Shown piece by piece: positions 21,123-48,404 of a stretch of DNA of 48,404 nt. The translations under genes and the position numbers were made by a program. This stretch comes from a virus (Duplodnaviria; Heunggongvirae; Uroviricota; Caudoviricetes): the IMG/VR virus record IMGVR_UViG_3300045988_155859; one strand, 5' to 3'. The notes below the pieces were generated by a model. That model saw nothing but the letters and a program-made list of their open reading frames with translations, was not told where the DNA came from and made no database searches. How positions within the stretch are numbered: the stretch's first letter is position 1; each line of letters opens with the position of its first letter.

Positions 21123-21127
21123 ACCTC

Positions 21128-22984: not shown

Positions 22985-22995
22985 AGGAAATATAA

Positions 22996-25863: not shown

Positions 25864-25872
25864 GGTGAGTTT

Positions 25873-26256: not shown

Positions 26257-26276
26257 TATAAAGAGGTCGTATTTTT

Positions 26277-28539: not shown

Positions 28540-28830
28540 ATGGCTAATAAGAAAAGTAGTAAAGAAGATATAGAAAAGAAGGAAGATGTTGCTCAAACAT
28601 TTGTATATATAGGGCCAACAATCCCTCAACTCTCAATTTTGAAGCATAAACTATTTAAGAATGGCTTATCTCCAGAGTGTGAAAAATTAATATCACATAT
28701 TCCTGGTGCAAAGTGTTTGTTTGTGGCAACCAGTGATTTTTCAGATGCAGAAAAAAGACTTTCTGATAAAACCAGTGTCGAGTATGTAATGTACTCTAGA
28801 GTTTCTTCTTCTATCATGGAGATTAAATAA
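28540..28830 (+). CDS. Hypothetical protein
   Basis: 96-aa ORF immediately upstream of the sheath gene. Confidence 0.35.
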   Translation: MANKKSSKEDIEKKEDVAQTFVYIGPTIPQLSILKHKLFKNGLSPECEKLISHIPGAKCLFVATSDFSDAEKRLSDKTSVEYVMYSRVSSSIMEIK

Positions 28831-30293: not shown

Positions 30294-30309
30294 ATAATAG
30301 GAGGTTGCT

Positions 30310-30831: not shown

Positions 30832-30840
30832 GGTGACAAA

Positions 30841-31122
30841 ATGGAAACCGTTAAATTAAGTAAAGAATATCGTTTTGAAGACTTTGAGCCGGTGACTGAA
30901 CTCAACCTTGATTTAGACAACCTAAAAGGCAGTGATATTTTAGAGGTATCTGACTTACTGCAATCTCAAGGGCATGTTTCAGTTCAAACATCACTTGATA
31001 ATAAAGTCCATGCAGCCTTGGCTGCTCGCTGTATTGGTCGTCCAATAGAGTATCTGAATGGATTACCAGCGAAAGACTTTGTTAAAGTTTGTCAAAAGGT
31101 ACAGAATTTTTTGCTCTCGTAG
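30841..31122 (+). CDS. Tail assembly chaperone (P2 gpE-like)
   Basis: 93-aa ORF ending just after a T-TTT-TTG slippery heptamer. Confidence 0.6.
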   Translation: METVKLSKEYRFEDFEPVTELNLDLDNLKGSDILEVSDLLQSQGHVSVQTSLDNKVHAALAARCIGRPIEYLNGLPAKDFVKVCQKVQNFLLS

Positions 31123-31271
31123 GTTTTGATGAGCAAAAACCTATTGATAAGCAAATAATGAGGGCCGCGAGTTCTCTATCTCAATCATCTCAATCAACAC
31201 CTATATCCTACTGGCTTTCGCTTCGGTTGAGGCGAATCGTCGCATGGATTGACGTGTTTAATGAGGATTAA
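30841..31271 (+). CDS. Tail assembly chaperone, -1 frameshift extension product (E+E'-like)
   Basis: A -1 shift at TTTTTTG (31107-31113) continues into the 31089-31271 frame (FFALVGFDEQK...), ending 6 nt before the tape measure start. Confidence 0.5.
31107..31113 (+). other. Programmed -1 ribosomal frameshift heptamer T-TTT-TTG
   Basis: Slippery sequence 3 codons before the zero-frame stop of the chaperone gene. Confidence 0.55.
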
Positions 31272-31276
31272 TACTA

Positions 31277-34069
31277 ATGGCCAGCAATAAGAACTTTAAG
31301 CTGGCTTTTGAAATTGGCGGCAAAGTTGCCGCCTCTCTCCCCAAAAGTTTTACTACAGCTAATCAGGCTGTTGCTAAATTAAATGCAGAGCTTGCTGGAT
31401 TAACGAAAGAACATGGGGAAATTCAAAAGCTACAATCTGTAAAAGTAAAGGTTGGACAGACTGCCCTCGAATATCATAAAGCTGCCGCTCGCGTTGAAGA
31501 GTTACAGAAGCAAATAAAAAACACGGCCAATCCAACCAGAGCGATGCTTCGTGACTTTGAGAAGGCAAAAACACATTCATCAAATTTACGAGCATCACTA
31601 CGTTCTCAGCGTGAAGAACTGGCCGCTTTAAAGTCTGCCTATCAGGGAGCTGATACATCTGCCAGAGCTTTGGCCTCAAGAGAGAAAGAGCTTAAAGCCA
31701 GCATTGATCGTAATCGTGAGGCTCAGGCCCGTAGCGTTGAGCAGGTTAACCGCTACAGAACGGCTTTGGCTTTAGCCAGAGCAAATGTTCAGCAAGTGAA
31801 AAAACAGCAGGAGGAACTTAACCGGGCATTAGAAAAACAACGTATTGATAAAATTAACAGCTATAAAAATGCGTTGGCTGAAGCACGGAAAAATGTTCTT
31901 GCAGTAAAACGTGCTCAGGAGGAGTTAAACCGCGCGTTGGAAAGGCAGCGTGAATTGAAGCGAGAGCATCTTGGTGAGGCAAAGAGTCAACTTGTAAGGT
32001 CAGGATTACAAACTGGTGCTGTAGCGGCTGGTGCATTTGCTGCTGCTAACAATGCAGCAAATTTCAATCGTGAAAACAAAATGATTGGTCTTACGGCAGA
32101 TATGAAGCCGGAAGAAGTTCAGGCGATGGGGCAGGCGATGCTTGTTACCGGAACGGCTACCAACCAGTTTGCATCTGATATTCAGGCCGCTCAGGGTTTT
32201 CTCGTCGCTGCTGGGCAGGATTATAAAGAGGCTCAGGCGAATCTACTAACTATTGGGCGAACAGCTACAGCTACTGGCTCTGATATCCTCGATGTCTCGA
32301 AAGCATCATTTACATTAAGTGACTCATTGAAGATTGATCCATCTCAAATGAAGTCTGCAATGGGGATTCTGGTTCAGGCAGGGAAAGAGGGGAACTTTGA
32401 ATTTAAAGATATGGCCAAAAATCTTCCTGTGCTTGGTGCTCAGTTCCAGGCATTAAAAATGGGAGGTAAAGAAGCAGCCGCGACGATGGGTGCAGCTTTG
32501 CAGATAGCTCGCAAGGGGGCTGCAACTTCGGATGAGGCTGCTAATAATATGAACAACTTTTTGGCAAAAATACTTTCCCCTGAAACACTAAAAAAAGCAA
32601 AGAAAAATTTCGGTGTAGATTTATATAAAATTGTTACAACAGCGCAGAAAAAAGGGAAGAATCCATTCGAAGCTGCAATGCATTCTGTCATGAAAATGAC
32701 TAAGAACGGAGATCAGAAGTTACTTGGTGAACTATTTGGCGATATGCAGGTTCAGAACTTTGTTCGTCCGATGATTCAAAACTGGAAGGAATACCAGAGA
32801 ATCAAAGCAACATCTCTTGGAGCTGGAAGTGCTGTTATTGACCGCGATTTTGCCAACATAACGAAAGATAATGCGGAGCGATTGAAACAATTACGTATTC
32901 AGGCTAGCAATGCATCATTAAGTTTTGGTCAGGCCTTGCAACCTGCTTTGAATGCCGCGCTTAGTGTTTTGGTTCCGCTGATTACAAAAATTAGTGAATT
33001 TGTAGCTAACAACCCCAATTTTGTGTCTCAGATAGTGATGGCGGCAGGTGCGTTTCTAACCATGAAAAGTGTGGTTATAGCGTGTAGGGTAGCTATGCTG
33101 GCTTTATCTGTAGCGACAAAGCTAACACCCTTCGGGTGGATTCAGATGGCTATATCTGCGCTGGTTGCCGCAGGAATATTGCTCTATCAGAATTGGGATA
33201 AGATCAGAGATTATGCTGTCAGAGTTTGGCCTTCTGTTAAGGAATATACAGTTAAATCATTTGAGGCTATAAAAAACTTTATCTTAAACTTTGACCTCAA
33301 TGGATGGATTATATCTATGTTTGGTAAAGCATGGGATTATCTTTCCAACATAAACTGGAGTTCGGCAGGAGTAAGAATTTACAGTACATTAATTAGTGCT
33401 TTTAAATGGATGTCTCCGCTTCCGTTCTTAATTAAAGCATTTAAAATTACAACAAATTACCTTTCTGGCATTAACTGGAGCGAAACAGGAAAGAAAATCA
33501 TAGATACACTGGTATCTGTTTTTATGCGTTTTTCACCAGTTGGACTCTTTATAAGAGCATTCCAATCTGTAACGACTTATTTATCTGGAATAAACTGGAG
33601 TGAGTCAGGCGCAAAAATAATTGAGACGTTAATCACTGGGATAAAATCAAAAGCAAATGCTTTAATTAATGAAGTGAAAGGCGTTTTTTCTTCTGTACGT
33701 GAGTATTTACCGTTCTCTGACGCGAAAAAAGGTCCATTCTCACAGCTAACAAAGTCAGGTGGTGCAATAATGACTACTCTGGCATCAGGTGTTAGCAGGA
33801 ATAACAGCTTACAGAATGCAATAGCAAGCAAGTTCGGGCAATCAAATTTATCACCTCACGGGATATCTGCCGCTGGGACTTCTGGACCTCGCCAGAACGT
33901 TAACGCTGTGACTGGTGGAATAACCTATTCACCTGTAATCAATCTTCCGGCTGGTTCACCAAAGGAAACTGAGGCGGCAGCTAAAAGAGCATTAGATGCG
34001 GGATATTCTGATTTTGAGAAGAAATTGAGTGCTCATATGTTCCAACAACGGAGATTAAGTTTTGGATGA
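31277..34069 (+). CDS. Tail tape measure protein
   Basis: 930 aa; coiled-coil-rich N-terminal third with repeated QEELNRALE segments, central hydrophobic stretch, position after the chaperone pair. Confidence 0.85.
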   Translation: MASNKNFKLAFEIGGKVAASLPKSFTTANQAVAKLNAELAGLTKEHGEIQKLQSVKVKVGQTALEYHKAAARVEELQKQIKNTANPTRAMLRDFEKAKTHSSNLRASLRSQREELAALKSAYQGADTSARALASREKELKASIDRNREAQARSVEQVNRYRTALALARANVQQVKKQQEELNRALEKQRIDKINSYKNALAEARKNVLAVKRAQEELNRALERQRELKREHLGEAKSQLVRSGLQTGAVAAGAFAAANNAANFNRENKMIGLTADMKPEEVQAMGQAMLVTGTATNQFASDIQAAQGFLVAAGQDYKEAQANLLTIGRTATATGSDILDVSKASFTLSDSLKIDPSQMKSAMGILVQAGKEGNFEFKDMAKNLPVLGAQFQALKMGGKEAAATMGAALQIARKGAATSDEAANNMNNFLAKILSPETLKKAKKNFGVDLYKIVTTAQKKGKNPFEAAMHSVMKMTKNGDQKLLGELFGDMQVQNFVRPMIQNWKEYQRIKATSLGAGSAVIDRDFANITKDNAERLKQLRIQASNASLSFGQALQPALNAALSVLVPLITKISEFVANNPNFVSQIVMAAGAFLTMKSVVIACRVAMLALSVATKLTPFGWIQMAISALVAAGILLYQNWDKIRDYAVRVWPSVKEYTVKSFEAIKNFILNFDLNGWIISMFGKAWDYLSNINWSSAGVRIYSTLISAFKWMSPLPFLIKAFKITTNYLSGINWSETGKKIIDTLVSVFMRFSPVGLFIRAFQSVTTYLSGINWSESGAKIIETLITGIKSKANALINEVKGVFSSVREYLPFSDAKKGPFSQLTKSGGAIMTTLASGVSRNNSLQNAIASKFGQSNLSPHGISAAGTSGPRQNVNAVTGGITYSPVINLPAGSPKETEAAAKRALDAGYSDFEKKLSAHMFQQRRLSFG

Positions 34070-34280
34070 TTATAGAACGGTTCAAGGGGACTCATGGGAT
34101 AGTATCGCTTTAAAGTTGTATGGTAATGAGTACCTGTCTTATCTTCTTATTGATGCTAATACTGAGCACCGCTTTACGGTGCTTTTTTCTGCGGGAATTA
34201 TTCTTAAAGTTCCTGATGCTCCGGTTATGCCAATATCAGTAAACAATTTTCCTCCGTGGAGACGCAATAGTGTTACGTAA
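34062..34280 (+). CDS. Tail protein X-like (LysM-like small protein)
   Basis: YRTVQGDSWDSIALKLYGNE pattern typical of P2 gpX-family proteins. Confidence 0.6.
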   Translation: MDDYRTVQGDSWDSIALKLYGNEYLSYLLIDANTEHRFTVLFSAGIILKVPDAPVMPISVNNFPPWRRNSVT

Positions 34281-35271
34281 AACGCTTTTTGATGTTATAT
34301 ATCAGAATGTAAATATTACCGCTCATATGTCACCTGATGTTTTGTCAATGTCTTATACAGATAATGAAGATGGTCAGGTCGATGATATTTCTATTATATT
34401 AAAAAATGATGATGGGAAATGGTCTGGAGACTGGACACCTAAAAAGGGTGATTTTATTGATTTGAGCTTTAAGCCTATAAATCAAATCGTCCTTGAGTGC
34501 GGGAAATTCCAGGTAGATGGCATAACTTGCTCTGGACCACCTTCTGTGGTTGAGGTAACTGCTGTTTCTGTTCCTGTTTCATCAGGCATTAGACGTGATT
34601 TAAAAAGTAATGCATGGGAAAAAACAACTCTTAAAGATATAGCAACTTCTATAGCTAAATTAGCTAACCTTGAACTGTTGTTTCTTATTGATGGTGATAG
34701 TAATCCATATTATGCGCGTGAAGATCAAATGGAGGAAAGCGATTTAAAATTTCTCCATCGACTTTGCCAGGATGAAGGGTTGTCGTTAAAGGTCACTGAT
34801 AGCCAATTAATAATATTTGCTCAAGAGATGTTTGAGCAAAAAGATCCTATCGCTACGCTTACGTTAGGTATTGATGAGATAATCAGATATAGCTTTAGCA
34901 CACAATCTACAGATTTGTATAAAAGTTGCACGTGCAAATATCGCGTACCTAAAAAAAGAAAGTCGCTTTCGTATACTTGGGTAGATCCATCCGTAGAAGA
35001 AGGGTCGAATCTTAAGATAAGAAAACTGGTAGCTAATTTAGATGAAGCAAAACGTAAGGCAAAGGCTGCTTTGCGGCTTAAAAATAGATATCAAAATACC
35101 GGATCTTTAGTATTGGTTGGAGACACCAGATTGGTAGCTGGTGTAACTATAAATCTGGAGGGATTCGGTTCATTTTCTGGAAAATATCTTATATCGAAAG
35201 CTGTGCATTCAATTGGGACTAGTGGTTATACCACCTCGATTGATGTCCGAAGAGTAATTAATGGGTATTAA
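34270..35271 (+). CDS. Tail/baseplate hub protein (P2 gpD-like)
   Basis: GTG start; 333 aa; position between X and the spike gene. Confidence 0.5.
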   Translation: MLRKTLFDVIYQNVNITAHMSPDVLSMSYTDNEDGQVDDISIILKNDDGKWSGDWTPKKGDFIDLSFKPINQIVLECGKFQVDGITCSGPPSVVEVTAVSVPVSSGIRRDLKSNAWEKTTLKDIATSIAKLANLELLFLIDGDSNPYYAREDQMEESDLKFLHRLCQDEGLSLKVTDSQLIIFAQEMFEQKDPIATLTLGIDEIIRYSFSTQSTDLYKSCTCKYRVPKKRKSLSYTWVDPSVEEGSNLKIRKLVANLDEAKRKAKAALRLKNRYQNTGSLVLVGDTRLVAGVTINLEGFGSFSGKYLISKAVHSIGTSGYTTSIDVRRVINGY

Positions 35272-35273
35272 TT

Positions 35274-35894
35274 ATGAATGATTTAGAAACATTATTACGT
35301 CAGACTATAAGAGTTGGCGTTGTTTCTGATATTGATGATGGTGATGTTACAGCAAGAGTTACTTTCGATGATCAGGATAACGTCACTTCGGCAAAGTTAT
35401 CAGTTATTGTGAAAAATACAGATAAGAATGCTGATTACTGGATGCCAGATATTGGTGAGCAAGTTTTGTGTATCTTTCATCCCGCGGGGCCGCAACAAGG
35501 TTTTATTCTTGGTAGTTTTTATGATGAAACACAGAAGCCGCCATCTAATACTGTTAATAAACGCGTCATTAGATTTAATAACGGAACTCGTATTGAGATA
35601 GACAGAGAATCTAATTTACTCCTTGTTGATGCTGTCGGAGATGTAACCATTAAGGCTACAGGAACCGTAACTATTGATGCTCCAGAAACCATCATTACCG
35701 GAAATGCTACAGTTGAAGGATTACTAACCTTCAAAGGTGGAATGAAAGGATCTTCTGCTGGAGGTGTTGCAGCTACAATTTCTGGGAATGTTAAGGTTGT
35801 TGGTGGTGATATAGATGTTGATGGGATTAAATCTAAAGGCCACCATCACACAGCTCAGGGGGAATACGCTCCGACAACGGAGGCTCAGGCATGA
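35274..35894 (+). CDS. Baseplate central spike protein (gpV-like)
   Basis: 206 aa with an N-terminal OB-fold-like region, a repetitive beta-rich middle (VDAVGDVTIKATGTVTIDAPE...) and C-terminal GHHHTAQG. Confidence 0.65.
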   Translation: MNDLETLLRQTIRVGVVSDIDDGDVTARVTFDDQDNVTSAKLSVIVKNTDKNADYWMPDIGEQVLCIFHPAGPQQGFILGSFYDETQKPPSNTVNKRVIRFNNGTRIEIDRESNLLLVDAVGDVTIKATGTVTIDAPETIITGNATVEGLLTFKGGMKGSSAGGVAATISGNVKVVGGDIDVDGIKSKGHHHTAQGEYAPTTEAQA

Positions 35895-36358
35895 TTGTGG
35901 GTATGCTTGGTACAATGCCTTTTGTTGCCTCATCAATAGTGGTGAATACGTTCAACAATTTTAAAAGGACGTCAAAGCGTCGTGTAGCGCGCCATGATGT
36001 TATTGGGCTTAAACCTGTTCTGGAGGATATAGGTCCAGATCTGGATGAAGTTAGTTTTAATATGCGGTTGGATACAACACTTGGCATTGTTCCATTGGCT
36101 GCGCTTTCATTACTTAGGACAATGCAATCAATTCAGGAAGTAAATCCTGTTGTAATTGGTATTCAGTATTTTGGTAATTTTATAATTACAGATATAGAGG
36201 AATCATGGACTTATTTCGGTCCAACTGGGAATCCACGAGTGATTATCGTCGGCATTAAATTACAGGAAGTCGGACAGACCTCTCTGAAAGAAGCATTAGT
36301 TGATATTGCTGGCAATATAGAGTCAAAAACTAGAAGTGCGTTAGGTAAATTATTATGA
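35891..36358 (+). CDS. Putative baseplate/tail component
   Basis: 155-aa ORF between the spike and gpW-like genes; no confident family. Confidence 0.35.
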   Translation: MIVGMLGTMPFVASSIVVNTFNNFKRTSKRRVARHDVIGLKPVLEDIGPDLDEVSFNMRLDTTLGIVPLAALSLLRTMQSIQEVNPVVIGIQYFGNFIITDIEESWTYFGPTGNPRVIIVGIKLQEVGQTSLKEALVDIAGNIESKTRSALGKLL

Positions 36359-36675
36359 ATAATACGTTTACCATATCATCACCTTCTTACTCGATTGATT
36401 GGTCGCCCAAAACAGTTGTAGAAGAAGTTTTGCAAAATGTCTCTACTATTATTAATACTCAAATTGGCACTGTACCATATGCCAGAAAATTAGGAATTAA
36501 TTCAAGTCTTGTTGATAGCCCTAGTCCAATTTTTATTGCTACAGCAACACGAGAAATAATTCAAAAAATTAGTGAGTTTGAGCCTAGAGCGATTATCCAT
36601 TCTGTTACTTTTGAAAGAACGGACGTTTCTGATGGTTTTATTATGCCAAAACTTGTGATAGGAGTTAGAGAATGA
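36355..36675 (+). CDS. Baseplate wedge protein (gpW / gp25-like)
   Basis: 106 aa; size, position before gpJ, and ...GTVPYARKLGINSSLVDSP... pattern. Confidence 0.65.
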   Translation: MNNTFTISSPSYSIDWSPKTVVEEVLQNVSTIINTQIGTVPYARKLGINSSLVDSPSPIFIATATREIIQKISEFEPRAIIHSVTFERTDVSDGFIMPKLVIGVRE

Positions 36676-37796
36676 CGTTGCCGCGTGGTGGTTTGCCAGA
36701 TATTACTTTCGCAGATTCTAACCCGACTGATATAACAACTCGTTCAATCAGGGCTTTTGAGAGTATAACAGGTGAAACATTAGCACCTGCTGATCCACGT
36801 AGATTATTCATCTTATCATTGTGTGAGATTATTATACAGCAAAGAAAAGCTATCGATTTTTCTGCAAAACAAAACCTTCTTACATATGGTGAAGGTGAAT
36901 ATCTCGACCATATAGGCTATCTGACGGATACGCCTAGGCTGGAAGCTCAATCTGCCTTGACTACATTTGAGTTTAATCTGTCAACAAAATTATCGGGGAT
37001 ATATACAATACCTGCTGGCACTCAAGTTTCAACTGGAAATGGTGTTATTTTCCAAACAGATATTTTGTTGGAAATACCTGCTGGGAAAACAGTTGGTACA
37101 GTCTCAGGATATGCTGTTATACCTGGTTTATCTGGGAATGGCTTTTTACCAGGGCAAATAAATGAGTTGGTGACTCCGTTGCCGTATGTTTCCAGAGTAA
37201 GGAATGTAACAACATCTAATTCTGGTGCTGATACGGAGTCAGATGATAATTATGCTGAAAGAATAAAACTGTCGCCGGAAAAACTGTCTACAGCAGGGCC
37301 GGAGGATTCTTATAAATATTGGACAAGAACAGCCAATCAGAATATAAAAGATGTGAATGTATATACACCATCGCCCGGAATTGTAGAAATCCGTTCTTTG
37401 TTAGAGAACGGAGATATACCTTCTGATGAACTATTAGAGCAGATAAATAGCGTTCTCTCTGCAACTAATATTCGACCATTCACAGATAAAGTTCTTGTTA
37501 AGAAACCAGAGAGCATTGAATACGATATAATAATTAAATACTGGATTAACTCATCGGACAAAAACAGAACAACTTTAATTCAAAGTGAGGTTGAGAAAGC
37601 TATTGATGAGTATAAACAATGGCAACGTTCGGTTATGGGAAGAGATATAAATCCAGATGAAATTATTCAACGTTTAAAAAATGCTGGGGCTAAAAGATTA
37701 GAAATATCAAGTCCTGTTTTTAATGTGGTTGGAGAGACACAGGTCGCCAGAGAGAGAAATATAAATTGCCAGTATGCGGGGTTAGAGGATGGCTGA
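36672..37796 (+). CDS. Baseplate protein J-like
   Basis: 374 aa following the gpW-like gene with overlapping stop/start. Confidence 0.75.
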   Translation: MTLPRGGLPDITFADSNPTDITTRSIRAFESITGETLAPADPRRLFILSLCEIIIQQRKAIDFSAKQNLLTYGEGEYLDHIGYLTDTPRLEAQSALTTFEFNLSTKLSGIYTIPAGTQVSTGNGVIFQTDILLEIPAGKTVGTVSGYAVIPGLSGNGFLPGQINELVTPLPYVSRVRNVTTSNSGADTESDDNYAERIKLSPEKLSTAGPEDSYKYWTRTANQNIKDVNVYTPSPGIVEIRSLLENGDIPSDELLEQINSVLSATNIRPFTDKVLVKKPESIEYDIIIKYWINSSDKNRTTLIQSEVEKAIDEYKQWQRSVMGRDINPDEIIQRLKNAGAKRLEISSPVFNVVGETQVARERNINCQYAGLEDG

Positions 37797-38370
37797 TATC
37801 TTTAATGTTAGCTTGTTGGATGTTTTACCTCCTAACTTAGCTAGCGATCCCAACGTGATAGCTATGTCGAAAGCTATTGATGATGAACTACAAGCAATTA
37901 ACAATTTAATATATAAGACAGAAATATATAGCGTTGTTGATAACCTGGACTCAGTTGTTCTCGATCATTTAGCTTGGCAATGGAATGCTGATACATGGAG
38001 GGATAGTTGGCCTGTATCGTTAAAGCGTTCTGTTTTTAAATCAATAATACGAACAAAGCGAATAAAGGGTACAAGGGCAGCGGTTGAAGATGTAGTAAAT
38101 AGCTTGGGTGGAGAGGTAAACATAACAGAATGGTTTGAAACATCACCACCTGGCGAACCATATACAGCCTCAATTGTTGCTTCGATTAACTCTTTTGATG
38201 GTGCTGTTCCTTCGAAAGAGATGTTGGAGGATACGTTAAGAAGTATCAAGAGTGCAAAGTCGGCAAGAACACTATTTACATTTTCGCAAGCAACCAATGT
38301 TTCAGGTGGTGTTGGTATTGTCGGTGCTTTCCAGCCTGTGTCTTATGTACGATTAATTGGTGAGTGCTAA
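37789..38370 (+). CDS. Tail protein I-like
   Basis: 193 aa between J and the tail fibre. Confidence 0.6.
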   Translation: MADIFNVSLLDVLPPNLASDPNVIAMSKAIDDELQAINNLIYKTEIYSVVDNLDSVVLDHLAWQWNADTWRDSWPVSLKRSVFKSIIRTKRIKGTRAAVEDVVNSLGGEVNITEWFETSPPGEPYTASIVASINSFDGAVPSKEMLEDTLRSIKSAKSARTLFTFSQATNVSGGVGIVGAFQPVSYVRLIGEC

Positions 38371-38400
38371 TTTGCGATTTGTTAATCCAAGGAATTAAGC

Positions 38401-41247
38401 GTGAGTAAATTATTATTTACGATGACTGACGCCGGGCGTAAGGCGCTGGTTAATGCCAACAAGACTGGAACAAATAAAGTTGAGATCGTTTCTGTTGGTT
38501 TAGGTAGTAGATATTATGCCACATCAACCACACAAACAAAAATAACAGATGAAATAAAGCGACTTACCACAATAGGAGGCAAAGTCGTTTCTCCTGATAC
38601 CATTCATGTAACTGCGAAGGATGATAGTAAAGATGAGTATGTTGTCCATACAATAGGTTTGTATACAAATAAAGGAACATTGTTTGCTGTATACTCGCAA
38701 GAACAAGTAATAATAAATAAAGCATCTTCTACAATTGCTTTAATATCAAGTGATATAGCAATTAAAAATCTTGATACTAAAAACATTACATTTGGTGATG
38801 TTGAGTTTATTAACCCTCCCGCAACCGAAACTGTTGTTGGAGTAGCAAGATTTGCTAATGAACAAGAAATTGATGCAGGTACAGATGATTCCCTGGCTGT
38901 TTCAGCAAAGCGGCTTAAGCAAGCTATTGTAAAACATGAGCAATCACGTAATCATCCTGATGCAACTTTAACATCAAAAGGCATTGTTCAACTCAGTAAT
39001 GCCACCAATAGCACGTCTGAAAAGCTCGCAGCGACGCCTAAGGCTGTTAAGGCTGCATATGACCTGGCTAACGCTAAATACACCGCACAGGACGCTACCA
39101 CGGCGCGAAAAGGGATTGTTCAGCTCAGTAGTGCCACTAACAGTACGTCTGAAACGCAGGCGGCAACGCCAAAAGCGGTCAAGGCAGCAAATGACAACGC
39201 AAATTCACGTCTGGCGAAAAATCAGAACGGTGCAGATATCCAGGATAAATCAGCTTTTCTGGACAATGTTGGCGTTACCAGCCTGACGTTTATGAAAAAC
39301 AATGGCGAAATGCCGCTTGATGCTGATCTGAATACGTTTGGTCCTGTTAAGGCTTATTCAGGTATCTGGTCTAAAGCAACATCCACCAACGCAACACTGG
39401 AGAAAAATTTCCCGGAAGATAATGCTGTCGGTGTGCTTGAGGTTTTTGCTGCCGGCAATTTTGCAGGTACGCAACGCTTTACCACGAGAGACGGCAATGT
39501 ATACATGCGTAAACTCGCCAATAAGTGGAATGGCACTGATGGTCCGTGGGGCGTATGGCGTCACACTCAATCTGCTACCCGCCCTTTGAGTACGACTATA
39601 GACCTGAATACGCTTGGAGCCGCCGAGCATCTTGGTTTATGGCGTAACAGTAGCTCAGCTATAGCTTCATATGAACGCAATTATCCAGAGGAAGGCGGCT
39701 TTGCTCAGGGGATGCTTGAGATCCTCGAAGGCGGAAATTATGGAAGAACGCAACGTTATACCACTCGCCGTGGAAATATGTATGTCCGCTGTCTTGCGGC
39801 AAGCTGGGATGCATCAAATCCGCAGTGGGAACCGTGGTTAAGAGTCGGTCATCAGTCAGAGAGTCGTTATTACGACGGTGATTTGAATGATGTAACCTCA
39901 CCAGGTATTTACAGCGTTACAGGTAAAGCGACCAACGGTCCAATACTGGACGGAAACGGCGTGACAGTCCTCGGTATTCTGGAGGTGTTGAGGCGCTTTG
40001 ATGGTGTTAATGTATGGCAGCGTTATACAACTGCCGGAACAGGTACAACCCTTAAAGGCCGCACCTTTGAGCGCGTCTTTACCGGCAGCTCATGGAGCGA
40101 ATGGCGGGAAGTCTACACCTCGTATTCACTTCCCCTGAATCTGGGTATCGGCGGTGCTGTGGCAAAGCTCACCAGCCTGGACTGGCAGACCTACGATTTT
40201 GTGCCGGGCAGTCTGATAACCGTTCGGCTTGATAACATGACCAATATTCCCGACGGTATGGACTGGGGCGTCATTGATGGCAACCTGATAAACATCTCAG
40301 TCGGTCCGAGTGATGATTCTGGTTCGGGACGCTCAATGCATGTATGGCGCAGCACTGTAAGTAAAGCCAACTACCGCTTTTTTATGGTTCGCATTTCAGG
40401 AAATCCGGGAAGCCGCACGATCACGACAAGACGTGTGCCAATTATCGACGAAGCTCAGACATGGATGGCGAAACAGACATTCAGCGGTGGTCTTTCAGGC
40501 GAACTATCCGGCAATGCTGCTACAGCAACAAAGCTGAAAACGGCAAGGACAATTAACGGCGTAAAATTTGACGGCTCGGCAAATATTGAAGCGTTTCCGC
40601 CAGGTGTTCCGCTGCCGTGGCCATCAGATACGCCACCTGCAGGTTATGCAATCATGCTGGGGCAGACGTTTGATAAGGCAGCATATCCGAAACTGGCTAT
40701 TGCCTATCCTTCTGGTGTTATTCCAGATATGCGCGGCTGGACAATCAAGGGCAAACCCGCCAGTGGTCGGGCCGTATTGTCTCAGGAACAGGATGGCATT
40801 AAATCGCACACCCACAGTGCCAGCGCATCCAATACGGATTTGGGTACGAAAACCACATCGTCGTTTGATTACGGTACTAAATCAACGAATAACACAGGTG
40901 CACATACCCATAATGTATCTGGTACTGCAAATAGTGCTGGCGCACATACTCATACCGTTCCATTAAGGAGACCAAACAGTGGCGGTATGAATTTCGACTG
41001 GCTGGATGGTTCATCAAGTGGCACGGTGGTGGGGAATGGAACTGTGCCTTCTTCTGGCGCACATACCCACTCAGTATCAGGTACCGCTACAAGTGCTGGG
41101 GCACATGCACACACTGTTGGTATTGGCGCTCATACGCACTCTGTTGCGATTGGTTCACATGGACACACCATCACCGTTAACGCTGCTGGTAACGCGGAAA
41201 ACACCGTTAAAAACATCGCATTTAATTATATTGTGAGGCTTGCATAA
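38401..41247 (+). CDS. Tail fibre protein
   Basis: GTG start; 948 aa; tandem KGIVQLS(N/S)ATNSTSE...[10 protein letters not shown] repeats; C-terminal His-rich GAHTHxV repeats; followed by the assembly chaperone. Confidence 0.8.
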
Positions 41248-41864
41248 TGGCATTCAGAATGAGTGAACAATCACGTACCGTAAAAATTTATAACCTGCTG
41301 GCCGGAACTAATGAGTTTATTGGTGAAGGTGACGCATATATTCCACCTCATACAGGGCTGCCAGCTAATTCTACAGATATCGCCCCACCGGAAATTCCTG
41401 CTGGCTTTGTGGCAGTTTTTAACAGTGAAAATGAATCGTGGAATATTGTTGAAGACCATCGTGGTAAAACGGTCTATGACGTGGCGTCGGGGGACGCATT
41501 GTTTATTTCTGAACTCGGACCGCTACCAGAGAATGTCACCTGGTTGTCGCCAGCAGGGGAGTATCAGAAGTGGGACGGCGTATCCTGGGTGAATGATGAG
41601 GAAGCAGAAAAACTGTTTCGGATACGGGAAGCGGAAGAGAAAAAGGCAAGGTTGATCCAGGAAGCAACAGATAACATCGCAATTCTGCAGGATGCAGTTA
41701 ATCTTGAAATAGCAACAAACGAGGAAAATTCACAACTGGATTCCTGGAGAAAATACAGAGTATTAGTGAGTAGAATTGACACCAGTACAGCTCCGGATAT
41801 CGTATGGCCAGAGCTGATGAATCAGGGTTATGTTCGGGAGGACGAGCAGATAACTTCAGACTGA
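41247..41864 (+). CDS. Tail fibre assembly chaperone (Tfa-like)
   Basis: 205 aa with the C-terminal ...[24 protein letters not shown] motif typical of Tfa proteins. Confidence 0.7.
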
Positions 41865-42391
41865 AATTTAGTGATGAATGTTGAATCATCAGGAATATCA
41901 TGCAATACCAATGCATGAGCACCTATTGTGACATTGTTTCCTATACGCACTTTGCCACCAAGAATGGTGGCATTACAACCAATGGTCACATTATGCCCTA
42001 TAACAATATCCATATCATTAAATTCCCCGCGAAGTCCAATAGTTACTCCGGGCTTAATTGAACAATTTTCACCGATTGTTACTTTGTGACCGATAACAAC
42101 ACTGTTGAGATAAGAAATATCAAAGCCTTTCCCTATATTTACAGTTAAAGGGACTGTTACATTATATTTATCAAGAATGAAACGTTCTATTTTTCCCGCA
42201 ATCTTCCGACAGTATCCGCCTTTATCAAAAAGGTATTTGGCTATGCGCCACCAAAATAAATAACGAACCCTTCTATGTTTTATTGCGCGAACAATTGCCT
42301 TTTGCCAGGAGAAAGGACGCTCGCTACCGATTACTTCATAGTGAATACAGTCTTTAAGTTCATTAATATTCATATCTTTATTATTCAGCAT
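41828..42391 (-). CDS. Hexapeptide-repeat acyltransferase (left-handed beta-helix family), candidate lysogenic-conversion gene
   Basis: Repeated [LIV]-G-x-x-x-x hexads ([23 protein letters not shown]...[34 protein letters not shown]); convergent with Tfa and overlapping its 3' end by 37 bp. Confidence 0.7.
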
Positions 42392-42806
42392 AAGATAATC
42401 ATGTGACCAATTATTGTAATAATTTTAATGGTATGTTTCTACTGGCTATCCAGCGTGTCTGATATCCAGTAACAAATCGTCAACACGGGTGCAATCAAAT
42501 AGTGAGTGTTAAGACTGACCACTTATTACCAGGTATGAGTGGCCAGCATTAAATCAGAACAGCCCTTTAACTGAACTGGCCGCGCTGTTAAGGGATGATG
42601 TCACCTTATCTTTGAAGCCGGACAGCATATTGCTGAACGATGAGTTTACCGCAGGTTTCTGGCTGGGAATCATTGACTGGAGTTAGGCCAGTAGTATGAT
42701 GCTCGCAAAACGAGATCCAATTTAGATCCTTTTACTGGTGGATTATCGTTCGATCAGTGAGAGACTTCGTGCATGACCGAAAGTGTTGTGGTAGAGTTCT
42801 CTTAAA

Positions 42807-42821
42807 ACCACGTAACGTGGT
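42807..42821. promoter_or_regulatory. Operator-like palindrome ACCACGTAACGTGGT upstream of repA
   Basis: Same ACCAC-N5-GTGGT dyad as the sites in the cI-cro region. Confidence 0.45.
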
Positions 42822-42861
42822 TATGATTGTGGGTGTCTGGTTGGAAAGTGACCAGATATGG

Positions 42862-42975
42862 AAACAAAAAGCCCGCAGATAAATCTGCGGGCTTCTTGCG
42901 ACATCCACGGAAAACCAACAACAACAATCCATGGGCGCCTCGACAACTCCCATTATACGTTGGTTTTCCGTGGAC
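42862..42975 (-). ncRNA. Candidate CopA-like antisense RNA over the repA leader
   Basis: Minus-strand terminator hairpin (11-bp stem AGCCCGCAGAT/ATCTGCGGGCT, 42870-42893) followed on the minus strand by a T-run; a 13-bp long-range inverted repeat (42904-42916 with 42962-42974) in the leader. Boundaries approximate; no promoter identified. Confidence 0.35.
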
Positions 42976-42989
42976 GCAAGAGCGAACAT

Positions 42990-43838
42990 ATGGATAGACC
43001 AATGCCGTCTCTACGTTCAGCTTACGTTTGTAATTTGTCGCCGGAGTTCCAGCCTCCAAAGCACCATACGCACAAGCTGCCGCTGGTGTTATCTGATGCT
43101 TTACAGCGCATTAATGGGCGTGATCTTACGTGTGAGGTTGCGTTCTACGTTAATCAACCGTCAGAGCGGAAGCGCCGGATAAACGAGCATCGTCGTCGGG
43201 CGATTAATGCTGTGATCGCTGCGATTTTGCACCATGTAAACATCATTTCTAAGCGGGTTCTGGCTAGTGCTGAGGCGTTGGCTGATTTTTGCGGCCTGTC
43301 TACCGTATCCGAAGCTGGGAACAAGTCTATAACGCGCTGTACAAGGGCGTTGTCGCAACTGAAAGCGTTAGGTTTTATTGATTATGAACGTCGCTGGGAT
43401 CGGGTGAATAAACAGTATTGGCCAGCGAAAATAGAGATTCGTGATCAACTGCTGGAAACCGTTGGTATTACTGAACAAGCATGGAGACGTGCGGTTAGCC
43501 AGAAACTTAATTACTTCAATGCGAAGAATAGCGAACGGCTTAAAAAAGCGATAACGGAGGCTGATTATAAGCGTATTGTTATTCAGGAGCAGATGGAGAA
43601 TGTATGGCGTCAGAGGAAGACGGCCAGAGAGATAAAGGCAAAACAGAAAGCAGCGGAGAGAGCTGCGCGTCTTGTTCGGGAAAAGGGAGAGGCCGAACTT
43701 CGTCATCAAATCACCAGAGAGGTTAGTCAGGAATTTGCTGATGGCATGTATCCTGGTGCTGACCTTGCATATTTACGATCCCTCGTTGAGCAGCGTTATA
43801 ACAGGTTAAGAAAGACCTGGAAATCACTCCAACATTAA
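42990..43838 (+). CDS. repA: Replication initiator RepA (IncFII RepA1-like)
   Basis: ...RRAINAVIAAILHHVNI...CGLSTVSEAGNKSITRCTRALSQLKALGFIDYE... parallels R100 RepA1 as I recall it. Start set at the Met where the similarity begins; the frame is open upstream to 42858. Confidence 0.75.
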   Translation: MDRPMPSLRSAYVCNLSPEFQPPKHHTHKLPLVLSDALQRINGRDLTCEVAFYVNQPSERKRRINEHRRRAINAVIAAILHHVNIISKRVLASAEALADFCGLSTVSEAGNKSITRCTRALSQLKALGFIDYERRWDRVNKQYWPAKIEIRDQLLETVGITEQAWRRAVSQKLNYFNAKNSERLKKAITEADYKRIVIQEQMENVWRQRKTAREIKAKQKAAERAARLVREKGEAELRHQITREVSQEFADGMYPGADLAYLRSLVEQRYNRLRKTWKSLQH

Positions 43839-43979
43839 CCCACCTGAATGATGAATCCGGTTTTACCGGAGGATTATCTACGTCGCAATAAAATATCTGT
43901 TCAAAAAACAATCTAAATTAATTTTCTCTAAACCTGAACACAGCAAAAATATCGCCTTTACAGGCATCGGCTAATAAAG

Positions 43980-43988
43980 TTATCCACA
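43980..43988 (+). promoter_or_regulatory. DnaA box TTATCCACA in the candidate origin region
   Basis: Perfect consensus 9-mer about 140 bp downstream of repA, in AT-rich DNA. Confidence 0.55.
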
Positions 43989-44481
43989 GTTCTGATATAT
44001 ATATGCAAATGGTTTTTTATAATAGATGCACTAAACAAATAAATGCAAAATCACTTTCTTTTATTAAGACTTTCTTTATTTAACTTACGCAGGCTTTGCC
44101 TGTGAATATGTTCGCCCTTGCAGCGAGCTAAAGCTCGCGCCGGTTCGAGTCGCTACGCTCAAATATACCTCCTCCGGCACTTGCCGGAGGCATGGAGCAG
44201 CCTGATCATCCTTTTCGAAACGGCACGTTTCGAACTATACAAAATCAATTTATATAAGGCCGAAATAAGGCCTACGGCCGGGCTTTGCAGGAGGAAGGGG
44301 CGAGCCTTATCAATAAACGTCGATAAATACGCACACAGTAGCCATCAGAACGCGATAAAATGTAAGAAACATCATTTCCTATTAGACATAGAAAACTTGT
44401 CTTATACGCAATGTAGTAAATTTCTATTGCCACATAGGAAAAGATTTCCTACCATCGTAGATATAATAAATGGAGATGGTT

Positions 44482-44769
44482 ATGGATAAAGATACTGTTT
44501 TAAAAATGTTGAATCCGGCTTGTTTAAAAAAAGCGGATGAATGGGAATCTCCTACATGTGGAGAAGTTCGGGCAGTCATTGGCCTGACCGGAATGAGCGG
44601 CTCGCAGTTAGCCAAAAAACTAGGCTTAAAAGATAGTCGCAATGTTCGCAACTGGCAGATGTTAAAGGAGTCCACATCCAGATCCAGCATTCCGTATGCA
44701 GCCTGGGCGCTGCTGTGTTACTTCGCTGGGTTAGGGTTAATCTTCATTGATAACAAAACAGATGTTTGA
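44482..44769 (+). CDS. Putative HTH DNA-binding protein with a hydrophobic C-terminus
   Basis: ...VRAVIGLTGMSGSQLAKKLGLKDSRNVRNWQ...; start at the third ATG, which has a GGAG RBS. Confidence 0.4.
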   Translation: MDKDTVLKMLNPACLKKADEWESPTCGEVRAVIGLTGMSGSQLAKKLGLKDSRNVRNWQMLKESTSRSSIPYAAWALLCYFAGLGLIFIDNKTDV

Positions 44770-44792
44770 AACATGCAAATATGAGGTTTGTT

Positions 44793-45056
44793 ATGGAACT
44801 TGTACGCAAAACACGCAAAGAGTTCTTGGACCTGTATCGCATGGGAGCTTTCACTTGTGTTGTGGCTACCCAGGACGAAGTGACAAAAAGCTGGCGGCTT
44901 TTTGCTCTCAATAAAAAAGGGATTGCCGTTTTCATTGAAAAAGCCCGTGGTGGTATCCGCGAATGGGCGGGATTGAATTATGTGGCTGATTTTTGCGCAG
45001 CTATGGGGATTCGTCGCTGGGAAGTCCATATGCCAGGAGTAAAGTCACAAAAATAG
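44793..45056 (+). CDS. Hypothetical protein
   Basis: ATG with GAGG RBS; 87 aa. Confidence 0.35.
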   Translation: MELVRKTRKEFLDLYRMGAFTCVVATQDEVTKSWRLFALNKKGIAVFIEKARGGIREWAGLNYVADFCAAMGIRRWEVHMPGVKSQK

Positions 45057-45300
45057 GGCTTTCGCGTCGAAAATGAGGCGAAACTGAAAACGAGATTTCA
45101 TTAACAAATAAGCAACATAAAAAACGGTGGAAAACGCCCAGGAAAACATGATCTTTTGAGCGGATTTTTTAGATCCGACAATGAACGGTGATCCGGTGGT
45201 GCCGATAACGTCCATTATGTTAAATAGCCCCGTTTTTCTTGAAATTATAACTCACAGGTTATATAGTTAGTGATATAAACTACAGGTTATAGGATTGAGC

Positions 45301-45648
45301 ATGTGGACGGTACTTTTTAGCCAGCGATTTGACGACTGGCTAAATGAGCAAGAAGACGCTCTTCAGGAAAAGGTTTTGGCTGATTTGAAAAAGCTACAGG
45401 TTTACGGACCTGAGTTACCCAGGCCATATGCCGATACCGTAAAAGGTTCTCGGTACAAAAATATGAAAGAGCTTCGCGTTCAGTTTTCTGGCCGTCCGAT
45501 AAGAGCCTTTTATGCGTTCGATCCGATTCGCCGGGCCATCGTTCTTTGTGCAGGAGACAAAAGTAACGATAAGCGGTTTTATGAAAAACTGGTGCGTATA
45601 GCTGAGGATGAGTTTGCAGCACATCTGAACACACTGGAGAGCAAGTAA
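45301..45648 (+). CDS. RelE/ParE-superfamily toxin (HigB-like)
   Basis: ...DTVKGSRYKNMKELRVQFSGRPIRAFYAFDPIRRAIVLCAGDKSNDKRFYE... typical of this toxin family; stop overlaps the antitoxin start. Confidence 0.75.
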   Translation: MWTVLFSQRFDDWLNEQEDALQEKVLADLKKLQVYGPELPRPYADTVKGSRYKNMKELRVQFSGRPIRAFYAFDPIRRAIVLCAGDKSNDKRFYEKLVRIAEDEFAAHLNTLESK

Positions 45649-45947
45649 TGAGAACATTAGATGAGGCGATTGCCAGCCGTTCACCTGAAAGCCAGGCGCG
45701 AATTAAAGAAATGGCAGATGAGATGATTCTTGAGGTCGGCTTGCAGATGATGCGTGAAGAACTCCAGTTATCACAAAAACAGGTTGCTGAGGCGATGGGT
45801 ATAAGCCAGCCAGCAGTAACAAAGCTGGAGCAGCGCGGAAATGATTTAAAGCTGGCGACATTAAAGCGTTACGTTGAAGCTATGGGAGGCAAATTAAGCC
45901 TGGATGTTGAGCTTCCCACAGGAAAACGAATAGCGTTTAACATCTGA
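45648..45947 (+). CDS. HTH (XRE-type) antitoxin, HigA-like
   Basis: ...LQLSQKQVAEAMGISQPAVTKLEQ... HTH; ATGA overlap with the toxin gene. Confidence 0.75.
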   Translation: MRTLDEAIASRSPESQARIKEMADEMILEVGLQMMREELQLSQKQVAEAMGISQPAVTKLEQRGNDLKLATLKRYVEAMGGKLSLDVELPTGKRIAFNI

Positions 45948-45962
45948 TCAGAACGAATGATA

Positions 45963-45988
45963 AGCCCCTGTTGCAAAGGGGCTTTTTT
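45963..45988 (+). terminator. Intrinsic terminator
   Basis: AGCCCCT-GTTGCAA-AGGGGCT hairpin followed by TTTTTT. Confidence 0.7.
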
Positions 45989-45994
45989 GCGCTC

Positions 45995-46110
45995 ATAGAA
46001 TTATATAATTATAGATTTATATAAAAAGTGCTTTACAGGTGGGAAAAAATTTCCTAAGGTTATACCCGAAACCGAGCGATACCCGCCCTGGTTAAACCGG
46101 AGATAACCCG
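45995..46110 (+). promoter_or_regulatory. Repeated promoter/5'-leader cassette, copy C
   Basis: Near-identical to copies A and B over about 100 bp; differs only in the last 10 nt before the ATG. Confidence 0.5.
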
Positions 46111-46491
46111 ATGAGCATGATTAAAATCCGCAAAAACGCTTTCCTTAAAATTCAAACTATCCTGGCTGGTTCTGTTGGCGTGATTTGCCGTTCTTCTTCA
46201 AGCCGCATCGATGACGGCTACGATGATGAGTATCGTTTGTCCTCGTGCGATGAGGCTTTAACCTGGCTGAAGGAGAATCAGGAACGTGCCCAGGTATATC
46301 TGGAAACAGAGAACGGCAATCAGATGCTCCGTATTAGCGGTCGTTATGGATTTGAAACCACATTCATGGCCTATTTTAATCAGGCTTACTTTGACAAGGA
46401 GTTGGCCTGGTACACTGATCGCATGAGCAAAAGCGAGCCAGCCCCGATTACACCGCCGAACGATAAACCATTTTTATTCCTCGTTAAGTAA
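46111..46491 (+). CDS. Hypothetical protein
   Basis: 126-aa ORF directly downstream of cassette copy C. Confidence 0.45.
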   Translation: MSMIKIRKNAFLKIQTILAGSVGVICRSSSSRIDDGYDDEYRLSSCDEALTWLKENQERAQVYLETENGNQMLRISGRYGFETTFMAYFNQAYFDKELAWYTDRMSKSEPAPITPPNDKPFLFLVK

Positions 46492-46594
46492 ACACAATGC
46501 GCAAAGTGTCAAAATGACACTTTGCGAGTGTTAATATAGGGGGCGTTTGAAGATAGATAACTTATTGTGGGGCAAGCCGATAACTTACATTGGG

Positions 46595-47020
46595 TTAGCT
46601 TGAATAGGTAGTTGGTATTTTGAGCATATGGCCAATCTCTTCGAGATGCTTAGATGGATTCTCCCCAGTCTTACCTTCATGTATTGACGCTATATAGTTC
46701 AAATTTTGAGCTGCCCCAAGAATCTCGGTGGCTGATGGAACAAGACGAAAGCCGATATGTAACTTTTTGATATAGAAAGGTAAAGTGGAATATTTCGCCA
46801 TTAACTGTGCTGCGGAATCTTTTAGATCATGAATGATTTCTGGCTTTAAGTTCGAGCCAGGATTCACTATTTTTGCTTGGTTACACAATAACAGATTGGA
46901 TATTTTCCCTAGCTGTTCCCTGAATGAAATGTAAGGCTCAATAGCTCCTTTGACGATGAGTTGGCCTAGAACAAAAACACTTACACCAGTGACCACGGTG
47001 ACAAAAGCAGATGAACTCAT
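46595..47020 (-). CDS. Hypothetical membrane-anchored protein
   Basis: 141 aa with an N-terminal hydrophobic segment (AFVTVVTGVSVFVLGQLIV); lone minus-strand gene. Confidence 0.45.
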   Translation of the reverse strand: MSSSAFVTVVTGVSVFVLGQLIVKGAIEPYISFREQLGKISNLLLCNQAKIVNPGSNLKPEIIHDLKDSAAQLMAKYSTLPFYIKKLHIGFRLVPSATEILGAAQNLNYIASIHEGKTGENPSKHLEEIGHMLKIPTTYSS

Positions 47021-47121
47021 TTTTTACCTAAAGCCTAAAGATTGGATTGTTAATACATCTTATTTTGTCGTGAGTGGCTATGTCTAATTTATTGAATATC
47101 TAGGGAAAGGTAGAGGATGTA

Positions 47122-47382
47122 ATGACGGGTTACGAATTGAAATTATGGCGTCGTGGGATGAACTGGACGCAGGAGCGAGCCGCCGAAGAGTTTGGGATAT
47201 CGTTGGCTACATATAAGCGATATGAGAAGGGTGAGCCGCCGAGGGTCATTGAGATGGCCATTCGCGTTCTGTCGTTTGACGATATGGTTAAGGATCTTTC
47301 ACACCTTGATAAAGATGTGATTCTGTTAAGGCTGCAAACCCTTGTATGGGAAAAGGTTAAAGTGTCGTCAGAATTGGAATAA
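47122..47382 (+). CDS. HTH (XRE-type) DNA-binding protein
   Basis: ...WTQERAAEEFGISLATYKRYEKG...; divergent from the 46595-47020 gene. Confidence 0.5.
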   Translation: MTGYELKLWRRGMNWTQERAAEEFGISLATYKRYEKGEPPRVIEMAIRVLSFDDMVKDLSHLDKDVILLRLQTLVWEKVKVSSELE

Positions 47383-47442
47383 GGGATCAAATGATCCTTT
47401 ACGGATCGTTTTATGGTGGTGTAATGTAAGCGCCAGAAAGAC

Positions 47443-47467
47443 AAAAACCGCCTTGCCGGGCGGTTTT
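47443..47467. terminator. Candidate bidirectional intrinsic terminator
   Basis: AAAACCGCC-TTGCCG-GGCGGTTTT: GC stem flanked by A-run and T-run. Confidence 0.5.
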
Positions 47468-48004
47468 CAGTCTGAAATTTAAATCTTGCTTGGTAGGCTG
47501 GATTTAAAAAGACACCTCTTGATTGGGGCGGCTTTCTTGCGTCTAAAGATAATCAAATCTTTTTGCGCCTGCAACCCCTTTTTTACTGGTGCCCATTTCA
47601 GACTCACGCTCGCGTCGTTGTCTTTGCCACTTCGTTGGGTTCGGTGTTTTTGGGCGAAGTGGCGCGCGGGTATGCGTACAAGGGGAAAGTGTGCTGACGC
47701 AAGCCAGGAACAGCGATCTAAACTAAGTCGAGTCTGAGAAAGGCAGGAGTGCGACAACTCGCCTGTGCTCTATGAGCAGAAGAAGGTATATCAGACGACC
47801 AATGGCATGATTGTGGGCCACAGGGCGCACACGGCGGCGAAGCATTGGAAACAATGTGGAGCTATCTGGTGGCATGAGTTCCGGTACTCGATCTCGAGCT
47901 TTTTTTGATGCTTTTGAGAAGGGGCCGGAACTCCGGTAAAGGGCACCCTGTATGGGGGGAGGGGGGGGTGTGTCTGAAGGGTGGTTATCGGTTATGGTGG
48001 AATT

Positions 48005-48193
48005 ATGATGCGTAGAAAAGCGAGTTTGCTGCAAGCTATTGGGTCCATTATTTCTTTGTTTCCGGCAGTTGATCATTTTCGTCATATGGCGACGCGTTCC
48101 AGTATGGGCTTGGCGCGTGATGCTGACGCTATTCGAAAGGATTTTCAGAAAGTCTCTGGCGTTGATAAGAGAGAAAAGAGTAAGGGGCCGTAG
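48005..48193 (+). CDS. Candidate small ORF
   Basis: 62-aa ORF from the ATG at 48005, convergent with the displaced antirepressor 3' end and sharing the hairpin at 48183-48201; weak support. Confidence 0.2.
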   Translation: MMRRKASLLQAIGSIISLFPAVDHFRHMATRSSMGLARDADAIRKDFQKVSGVDKREKSKGP

Positions 48194-48203
48194 CCCCTTG
48201 TAG

Positions 48204-48349
48204 TTATGGTCTGCTTTTCTGTGCCAGCTTATCAGCACATGTTTTTATCAGATCCTGTAGTGTCTTGGCTGGCAGGTTTGCATCCAGTACGCTGAGTATG
48301 CTGTTGTGATCAGCTTGGTCGACTACTTTGCCTGTCGGTGGTAGTAGCT
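48204..48349 (-). pseudogene. Displaced 3' fragment of the antirepressor gene (about 46 codons)
   Basis: Deleting the element and one TAGCT copy joins 48349 to 61 and extends the antirepressor frame by ...LPPTGKVVDQADHNSILSVLDANLPAKTLQDLIKTCADKLAQKSRP to a TAA at 48204-48206, followed by a hairpin at 48183-48201. Confidence 0.6.
48345..48349. repeat. 5-bp target-site duplication TAGCT (right copy)
   Basis: Identical pentamer to 56-60, abutting the GGGG terminus of the right IR. Confidence 0.7.
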
Positions 48350-48404
48350 GGGGTTTGAGGGCCAATGGAACGAAAACGTACGTTAAGGAGATAATTCGTT
48401 GTTT
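48350..48404 (+). mobile_element. Tn3-family (gamma-delta/Tn1000-like) terminal inverted repeat, right copy: 35-bp IR at 48350-48384 plus 20 bp of element interior
   Basis: GGGGTTTGAGGGCCAATGGAACGAAAACGTACGTT followed by AAGG, close to the Tn3 IR as I recall it (GGGGTCTGACGCTCAGTGGAACGAAAACTCACGTTAAG). Perfect inverted copy of 21-55. Confidence 0.75.

Follow-up and report, generated by a model that had tools for sequence, protein, structure and literature searches.

Inverted ends of an Escherichia coli phage-plasmid contig correspond to the two termini of Tn1000, very probably inserted in an anti-repressor-like gene and cut off at an assembly boundary

Tn3-family transposons move by replicative transposition, in which a cointegrate is formed and then resolved, and this established pathway is the basis of the steps proposed below. 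Cointegrates of gamma-delta (Tn1000) are resolved efficiently by resolvase, and the classical consequence of F carrying gamma-delta is the conduction of non-mobilizable plasmids. Plasmid F (NC_002483.1) holds at 4191-10171 an element of 5,981 bp with genes for a Tn3-family transposase, a recombinase-family protein (resolvase) and a 698-aa ORF; the element is annotated as 'Tn3-like element ISEc63 family', and we take it to be Tn1000/gamma-delta. Its largest passenger, the 698-aa ORF, is annotated as hypothetical and gives only a faint ORC/CDC6-like match in Pfam. A much smaller relative, IS101, is 209 bp long and is mobilised by the Tn1000 transposase (PMC4133298).

The window analysed here (the whole 48,404-nt stretch of IMG/VR record IMGVR_UViG_3300045988_155859) carries near its two ends the copies of a perfect 35-bp inverted repeat (IR; 0 mismatches). 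The left copy reads AACGTACGTTTTCGTTCCATTGGCCCTCAAACCCC and is followed by TAGCT, the right copy reads GGGGTTTGAGGGCCAATGGAACGAAAACGTACGTT and is directly preceded by TAGCT, and the GGGG tips of both copies are oriented toward the phage-plasmid DNA (Table 1). Exact occurrences of the 35-mer in the window number two, one per strand, against an expectation of 0.00 from 100 dinucleotide-preserving shuffles. Imperfect complementarity detected by a repeat finder reaches both window edges (arms 1-55 and 48350-48404, 85%), and the element sequence held by the window amounts to exactly 55 nt per end. Beyond the 35 bp the two window ends differ from one another.

Each terminal 55-mer was queried separately against 72,556 plasmids. 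The right end and the reverse complement of the left end each match the element of plasmid F at 100% identity (55/55), the former at the end that carries the transposase gene (tnpA) and the latter at the end that carries the 698-aa ORF. The bases internal to the 35-bp IR differ between the two ends of Tn1000, and each window end matches its proper one; the orientation of the window ends is that expected with the transposon body lying between positions 48404 and 1. At the right end, the minus strand of positions 48383-48403 is the very end of tnpA, six codons and a TAA stop (in F, tnpA ends at 10138). On these matches the window ends are the two natural, distinct termini of Tn1000, a known transposon, and the element itself is not new.

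Table 1. Coordinates of the features discussed in the text (window positions unless another record is named).
Feature	Coordinates	Strand	Remark
Outermost 55 nt of Tn1000, 698-aa-ORF end (not tnpA end)	1..55	-	= F 4191-4245
IR, left copy	21..55	-	GGGG tip at 55
Truncated anti-repressor-like gene (ORF6N + Phage_pRha), 336 aa	47..1057	-	intact homologue 380 aa, minus strand
Target-site duplication TAGCT, copy 1	56..60	.	single in pMB9698_3 empty site
Complete, circularly permuted E. coli phage-plasmid genome, ~48.3 kb	56..48349	.	colinear with pMB9698_3
Detached 3' part of the anti-repressor-like gene (final 46 codons and stop)	48204..48349	-	cut off by insertion
Target-site duplication TAGCT, copy 2	48345..48349	.	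single in pMB9698_3 empty site
IR, right copy	48350..48384	+	GGGG tip at 48350
Outermost 55 nt of Tn1000, tnpA end	48350..48404	+	= F 10171-10117, under annotated Tn3-family transposase
Tn1000 698-aa ORF	L001 204-2300 (F NC_002483.1 4303-6399); L005 2392-4488	-	
Depth into Tn1000, this window	55 and 55 nt		
Depth into Tn1000, L004 and L006 (contigs named k127)	127 nt		
Depth into Tn1000, L007 and L009 (Logan contigs)	30 nt		
L005 join: phage-plasmid / full Tn1000 / disulfide-oxidoreductase fragment / DUF1380 leading region	L005 2280-9438		
215-bp Tn1000 remnant	L003 3001-3215 = NZ_CP196681.1 7506-7720; also NZ_JBRNHC010000003.1 7505-7719		two ~88-kb E. coli plasmids

To obtain the uninterrupted target, the element and one TAGCT were removed, the flanks were joined and the resulting 1,400-bp rebuilt site was used as a query. 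The rebuilt site is present without a break in 56 circular non-mobilizable Escherichia plasmids (~46-51 kb, 95-99.9% identity) and likewise in three Yersinia phages (vB_YpM_39/41/44). The closest uninterrupted relative, pMB9698_3 (NZ_CP103471.1; circular, 47,715 bp), reads ...GGTGGTAG TAGCT TGAGCTGAGG... at this point, with one TAGCT only. In a whole-window comparison, window 56-26384 corresponds to pMB9698_3 21961-47715 and window 26385-48349 to pMB9698_3 1-21965, wrapping the plasmid origin; the two sequences are colinear, with 99.2-99.97% identity over most of the length, and the sole plasmid bases covered by both window ends are 21961-21965, the TAGCT itself. Because the empty site of the relatives has a single TAGCT that is covered by both window ends, the pentamer match is no coincidence and represents a genuine 5-bp target-site duplication. 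Since the window wraps once around pMB9698_3 and its ends share only this pentamer, it is one complete phage-plasmid genome, circularly permuted and opened exactly at the insertion.

The original prediction had described the 35-bp IR with GGGG tips facing phage DNA and TAGCT on both sides, had read TAGCT as a 5-bp duplication, and had assigned the repeat to the Tn3 family, possibly to gamma-delta/Tn1000, with the interior of the element lying across the window boundary. The repeat is confirmed to the base, and the duplication is borne out by the search of related phage-plasmids, which found the uninterrupted target site with its single TAGCT. The family assignment holds as well: alignment of the termini to the reference element matched both distinct ends of Tn1000 over their full 55 nt and in the right relative orientation, and the interior does fall across the boundary.

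The annotation of pMB9698_3 lists RepA, ParA, a RelE/ParE toxin, terminase and portal proteins, a contractile tail of the tail sheath type, baseplate proteins and holins/lysis genes. Through this colinear annotation, replication/partition and structural/lysis genes are found on one replicon, as is characteristic of a phage-plasmid, and the Yersinia phages among the related records are isolated phages. We dropped an assignment of the backbone to the pSLy3 phage-plasmid group, since published grouping puts pSLy3 in the SSU5 supercommunity, and the backbone is left unclassified here.

Several further features of the backbone were recorded. The sole block poorly shared with pMB9698_3 lies at ~9082-11773 and consists of patchy 94-97% matches, gaps and small ORFs; within it, a 149-aa ORF (10338-10787) turns up again on 21 contigs from metagenomes or assemblies. 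A full-length match to the ryfA sRNA is found at 1856-2152(+) (141.8 bits against an Rfam gathering score of 80), and the phage-plasmid carries a tRNA-Met (CAT) gene at 13737-13812(+). A cassette of ~115 nt is present in three direct copies (7174-7300, 14705-14831 and 45996-46122) and in partial inverted copies (2622-2667, 3343-3452, 8388-8419 and 13568-13609). Each cassette opens with an AT-rich near-palindrome, ATAGAATTATATAATTATAGATTTATATAAAAAG, and closes with the ribosome-binding site and ATG of a different gene, the genes that follow encoding a 355-aa DUF3560 protein, an 89-aa ORF and a 126-aa ORF. The predicted fold of the cassette leader is unremarkable (z = -0.95). The cassette looks like a shared promoter/operator with leader that would place three operons under one control.

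The gene hit by the insertion matches PHROG anti-repressor families and contains the Pfam domains ORF6N (residues 12-96) and Phage_pRha (155-239), both of which are kept after insertion. Its shortened product of 336 aa retains 334 native residues, to which the transposon IR adds GV and a stop codon. Upstream on the same strand, Rfam matches that exceed their gathering scores mark a C4 antisense RNA (1299-1386(-)) and isrK (1411-1484(-)), and a 63-aa ORF at 1054-1245(-) shares 4 nt with the beginning of the ORF6N/Rha gene. By analogy of layout, Tn1000 would thus sit in the putative anti-repressor of an immunity region that resembles P1 immI.

The lengths of Tn1000 sequence reached by contigs that share this insertion (Table 1) bear on how the window ends arose. 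Logan contigs are assembled with k=31, adjacent graph edges overlapping by k-1 = 30 nt, and the two Logan contigs stop at that depth. A related scaffold (L008) enters Tn1000 for 53 nt, so the k-mer rule is inexact across pipelines. For the present window a value of k = 55 may be inferred, and the symmetric 55/55 overhang would then arise because a k=55 graph edge ends at the last k-mer shared with the repeat. We consider it very likely that a de Bruijn-graph assembler was stopped on both sides by a multi-copy Tn1000, with the contig reaching one k-mer into it. A boundary of this kind implies a second copy of Tn1000 in the sample. Under this explanation base 48404 does not join base 1, and ~5.87 kb of transposon is missing between them.

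The truncated 336-aa protein is specific to the insertion and was used as an exact search key. In human-gut metagenomes it was located on 11 contigs, which come from at least four samples (ERR2227917, ERR2227918, COST17-1 and KORP18-1). The comparison of their flanks with the window covered ~2.3 kb of phage-plasmid sequence and showed 100% identity, and the left junction comes from independent assemblies of several samples made with three assemblers. Past window base 1 (...CTTATTGATT), L004, L005 and L006 continue with ATAATACAGTATACAAAGG..., which is the Tn1000 interior as in F. Scaffold L005 contains the whole transposon at 2280-8260, exactly 5,981 bp, with the 698-aa ORF, a 183-aa Resolvase and a 1,002-aa DDE_Tnp_Tn3 transposase at the F coordinates (L001 numbering) plus 2188; a transposase and a resolvase between the IRs are therefore seen in a scaffold with the same junction and an identical flank, the interior itself lying outside the window. 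From the other side, the 39-mer of the right backbone/IR junction had no match in IMG/VR, GTDB genomes or JGI metagenomes, a BLAST comparison of window 48150-48404 with complete E. coli genomes gave nothing that spans the junction, and two versions of the orphan C-terminal fragment had no match in an exact-protein look-up. The exact insertion was likewise found in none of the complete E. coli genomes or PLSDB plasmids, which hold no finished assembly of the 54.3-kb product. The insertion site is new to the finished genomes searched, yet recurrent in metagenomes.

Taken by itself, the window is also compatible with a reading that the original prediction had offered for a closed circle, in which 48404 joins 1 directly and the two IRs enclose a 40-bp core to form a 110-bp, transposase-less derivative of Tn1000. 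Such an insert would be a MITE of the TIME/IS101 kind, mobilised in trans. Short gamma-delta-related elements such as IS101 do exist (PMC4133298), and a 215-bp internally deleted remnant of Tn1000 was found on two plasmids. The direct join would read ...GTTGTTT followed immediately by AATCAATAAG..., and this join, sought as the 32-mer across it or as the 110-mer, is absent from 5,426 complete E. coli genomes, GTDB genome contigs, JGI metagenome contigs and IMG/VR; the only places in complete E. coli genomes that cover the whole 110-mer are the 215-bp deletion remnant, not the direct join. The sister contigs, with identical flanks and junction, go on into the Tn1000 interior and not into the other IR. 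A circle opened at random would be cut at the exact 55/55 midpoint about once in 48,404 cases, whereas a k=55 repeat boundary predicts 55/55, and the window ends lack the direct k-mer overlap that assemblers leave on circular contigs. The 5-bp duplication, common to Tn1000 and to the TIME/IS101 class, does not discriminate between them. With the join absent from four collections and the interior present in sister contigs, the miniature element was not borne out, and we regard it as highly improbable. The alternative that the original prediction had set beside it, a full transposon just outside the window, fits the evidence, L005 holding the whole element; the cargo genes it had allowed for are not seen in that copy, which is a plain Tn1000 (698-aa ORF, resolvase and transposase).

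Some other non-autonomous or internally deleted derivative of Tn1000 could occupy the site, with full copies elsewhere in the sample sharing its ends and still breaking the contig; identical contig ends would arise from any element whose two tips each match another copy in the sample over 55 nt or more, and deletion derivatives are represented by the 215-bp remnant. That possibility is a slim one: the sole assembly that traverses the element from this junction shows the full 5,981 bp with three intact genes, and the k127 contigs carry at least 127 nt of the canonical non-tnpA end, of which the remnant has only 62 nt. A pure artefact, in which a chimeric or hairpin read or a misassembly had produced the repeat on a phage-plasmid with no transposon insertion, has in its favour that hairpin artefacts can yield inverted sequence at both contig ends. 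Here the window ends diverge beyond 35 bp and each corresponds to its own natural terminus of Tn1000, the junctions fall precisely at the IR tips next to a 5-bp duplication of a sequence that relatives have only once, and three assemblers recovered the left junction independently from several samples, so that the chance of an artefact is close to negligible. The remnant is of some interest in its own right: it joins 153 nt of the tnpA end to 62 nt of the other end, keeps both IRs intact and lacks a flanking 5-bp duplication. It is potentially a trans-mobilisable mini-gamma-delta, or only a deletion scar.

The far end of the transposon in L005 has a different neighbour. At the tnpA end the IR tip, where the sequence breaks exactly, adjoins GGTATCTGCC... 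and not the phage-plasmid. The first ~70 nt of this flank belong to the F-plasmid gene for a protein disulfide oxidoreductase, known on roughly 750 E. coli plasmids, and beyond them lies a DUF1380 leading region that is 100% identical to many conjugative plasmids. This far junction between Tn1000 and F-like DNA is present in no PLSDB plasmid. The tnpA end thus has at least two neighbours in the community, the phage-plasmid and an F-like plasmid, which explains the assembly break and suggests the donor: because the far junction adjoins F-like DNA, an F-like conjugative plasmid is the likely source of Tn1000.

With F-like DNA at the far end of its Tn1000, L005 on its own falls short of showing a simple insertion. 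Its order (phage-plasmid, AGCTA, full Tn1000, F-like DNA) is that of a cointegrate junction, as expected if fusion had placed the phage-plasmid inside an F-like conjugative plasmid, with a direct copy of Tn1000 on either side, whether as an unresolved intermediate of replicative transposition or through homologous recombination between two Tn1000 copies. The resolved and fused states share the same four junctions, and short-read contigs, the window included, do not separate them. The Tn1000 of L005, however, encodes an intact 183-aa resolvase; a 6-kb repeat exceeds the reach of short-insert pairs, so that the path taken by L005, a gapped scaffold with a run of N, may be a wrong choice among equal graph paths; and no finished plasmid with this fusion is present among complete E. 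coli genomes or in PLSDB. Since the resolvase is intact and the gapped scaffold's path through the 6-kb repeat is a guess, we favour the resolved state and judge the fusion unlikely. Read literally, L005 would depict a non-mobilizable phage-plasmid fused to an F-like conjugative plasmid via two Tn1000 copies, with the window as the phage-plasmid segment, an equally doubtful reading. If it were true, a temperate phage genome would have been caught being 'conducted' by conjugation through a gamma-delta cointegrate in gut communities; a literature search on gamma-delta 'conduction' returned nothing specific.

We therefore return to the simple insertion, and hold with high confidence that Tn1000 inserted into the 3' part of the anti-repressor-like gene of a ~48.3-kb phage-plasmid and that the contig was broken at the repeat. 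To judge from the sister contigs, the copy in the window's own molecule is most likely full length, 5,981 bp with tnpA, tnpR/res and the 698-aa ORF. The sample would have held at least one further copy of Tn1000, most likely on an F-like conjugative plasmid. From such a co-resident replicon, Tn1000 would have attacked the phage-plasmid with staggered 5-bp cuts at TAGCT and replicated through a cointegrate, which TnpR would have resolved at res, so that a single copy with TAGCT on both sides stayed behind in the anti-repressor-like gene. We infer, on this model, that the transposon came from the co-resident F-like plasmid by replicative transposition.

The true replicon would then measure ~54.3 kb (48.3 kb plus 5.98 kb), compared with 46.1-51.3 kb among the relatives listed, and users of the record should treat it as a replicon of that size with an interrupted anti-repressor-like gene. 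Loss of the C-terminus of the putative anti-repressor together with the larger genome might interfere with induction or packaging. The symmetric inverted ends are what a contig shows when it halts one k-mer into a multi-copy transposon; they mark no new miniature element and give no evidence of closure at that point. The presence of Tn1000 on a phage-plasmid, with an identical junction in several gut metagenomes, points to traffic between conjugative plasmids and phage-plasmids.

In comparison with known systems, the order of C4 RNA, small ORF and putative anti-repressor in the window is similar to that of the P1 immI cassette (c4, icd, ant). The backbone shares the rebuilt target site at 95-99.9% identity with pMB9698_3, the 48,488-bp plasmid of ATCC 25922 (NZ_CP009073.1) and the Yersinia phages, in all of which, unlike the window, the anti-repressor-like gene is intact and the site is without Tn1000; a variable block at ~9.1-11.8 kb is shared only in part with pMB9698_3. 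TIMEs and IS101-type elements (Szuplewska et al. 2014, PMC4133298) have the same Tn3-family IRs and 5-bp duplication, but they are contiguous units of ~200-260 bp, and this contiguity, by which they are defined, is not seen for the IRs of the window. The window ends do behave as contig ends at collapsed repeats in de Bruijn graphs, where the unique segment stops one k-mer into the repeat on both sides. The element is the Tn1000 known from F. Its interior is absent from the window apart from the six codons that end tnpA; the 55-nt termini match those of F at 100% identity, also in the bases past the 35-bp IR where the two ends differ, the target duplication is of 5 bp, and sister scaffold L005 has the length (5,981 bp) and the gene layout of the F copy. 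The transposon otherwise differs from that of F in location only, lying on a phage-plasmid in the 3' end of an anti-repressor-like gene, and the locus combines a known transposon with an assembly boundary, an ordinary event of a kind already known.
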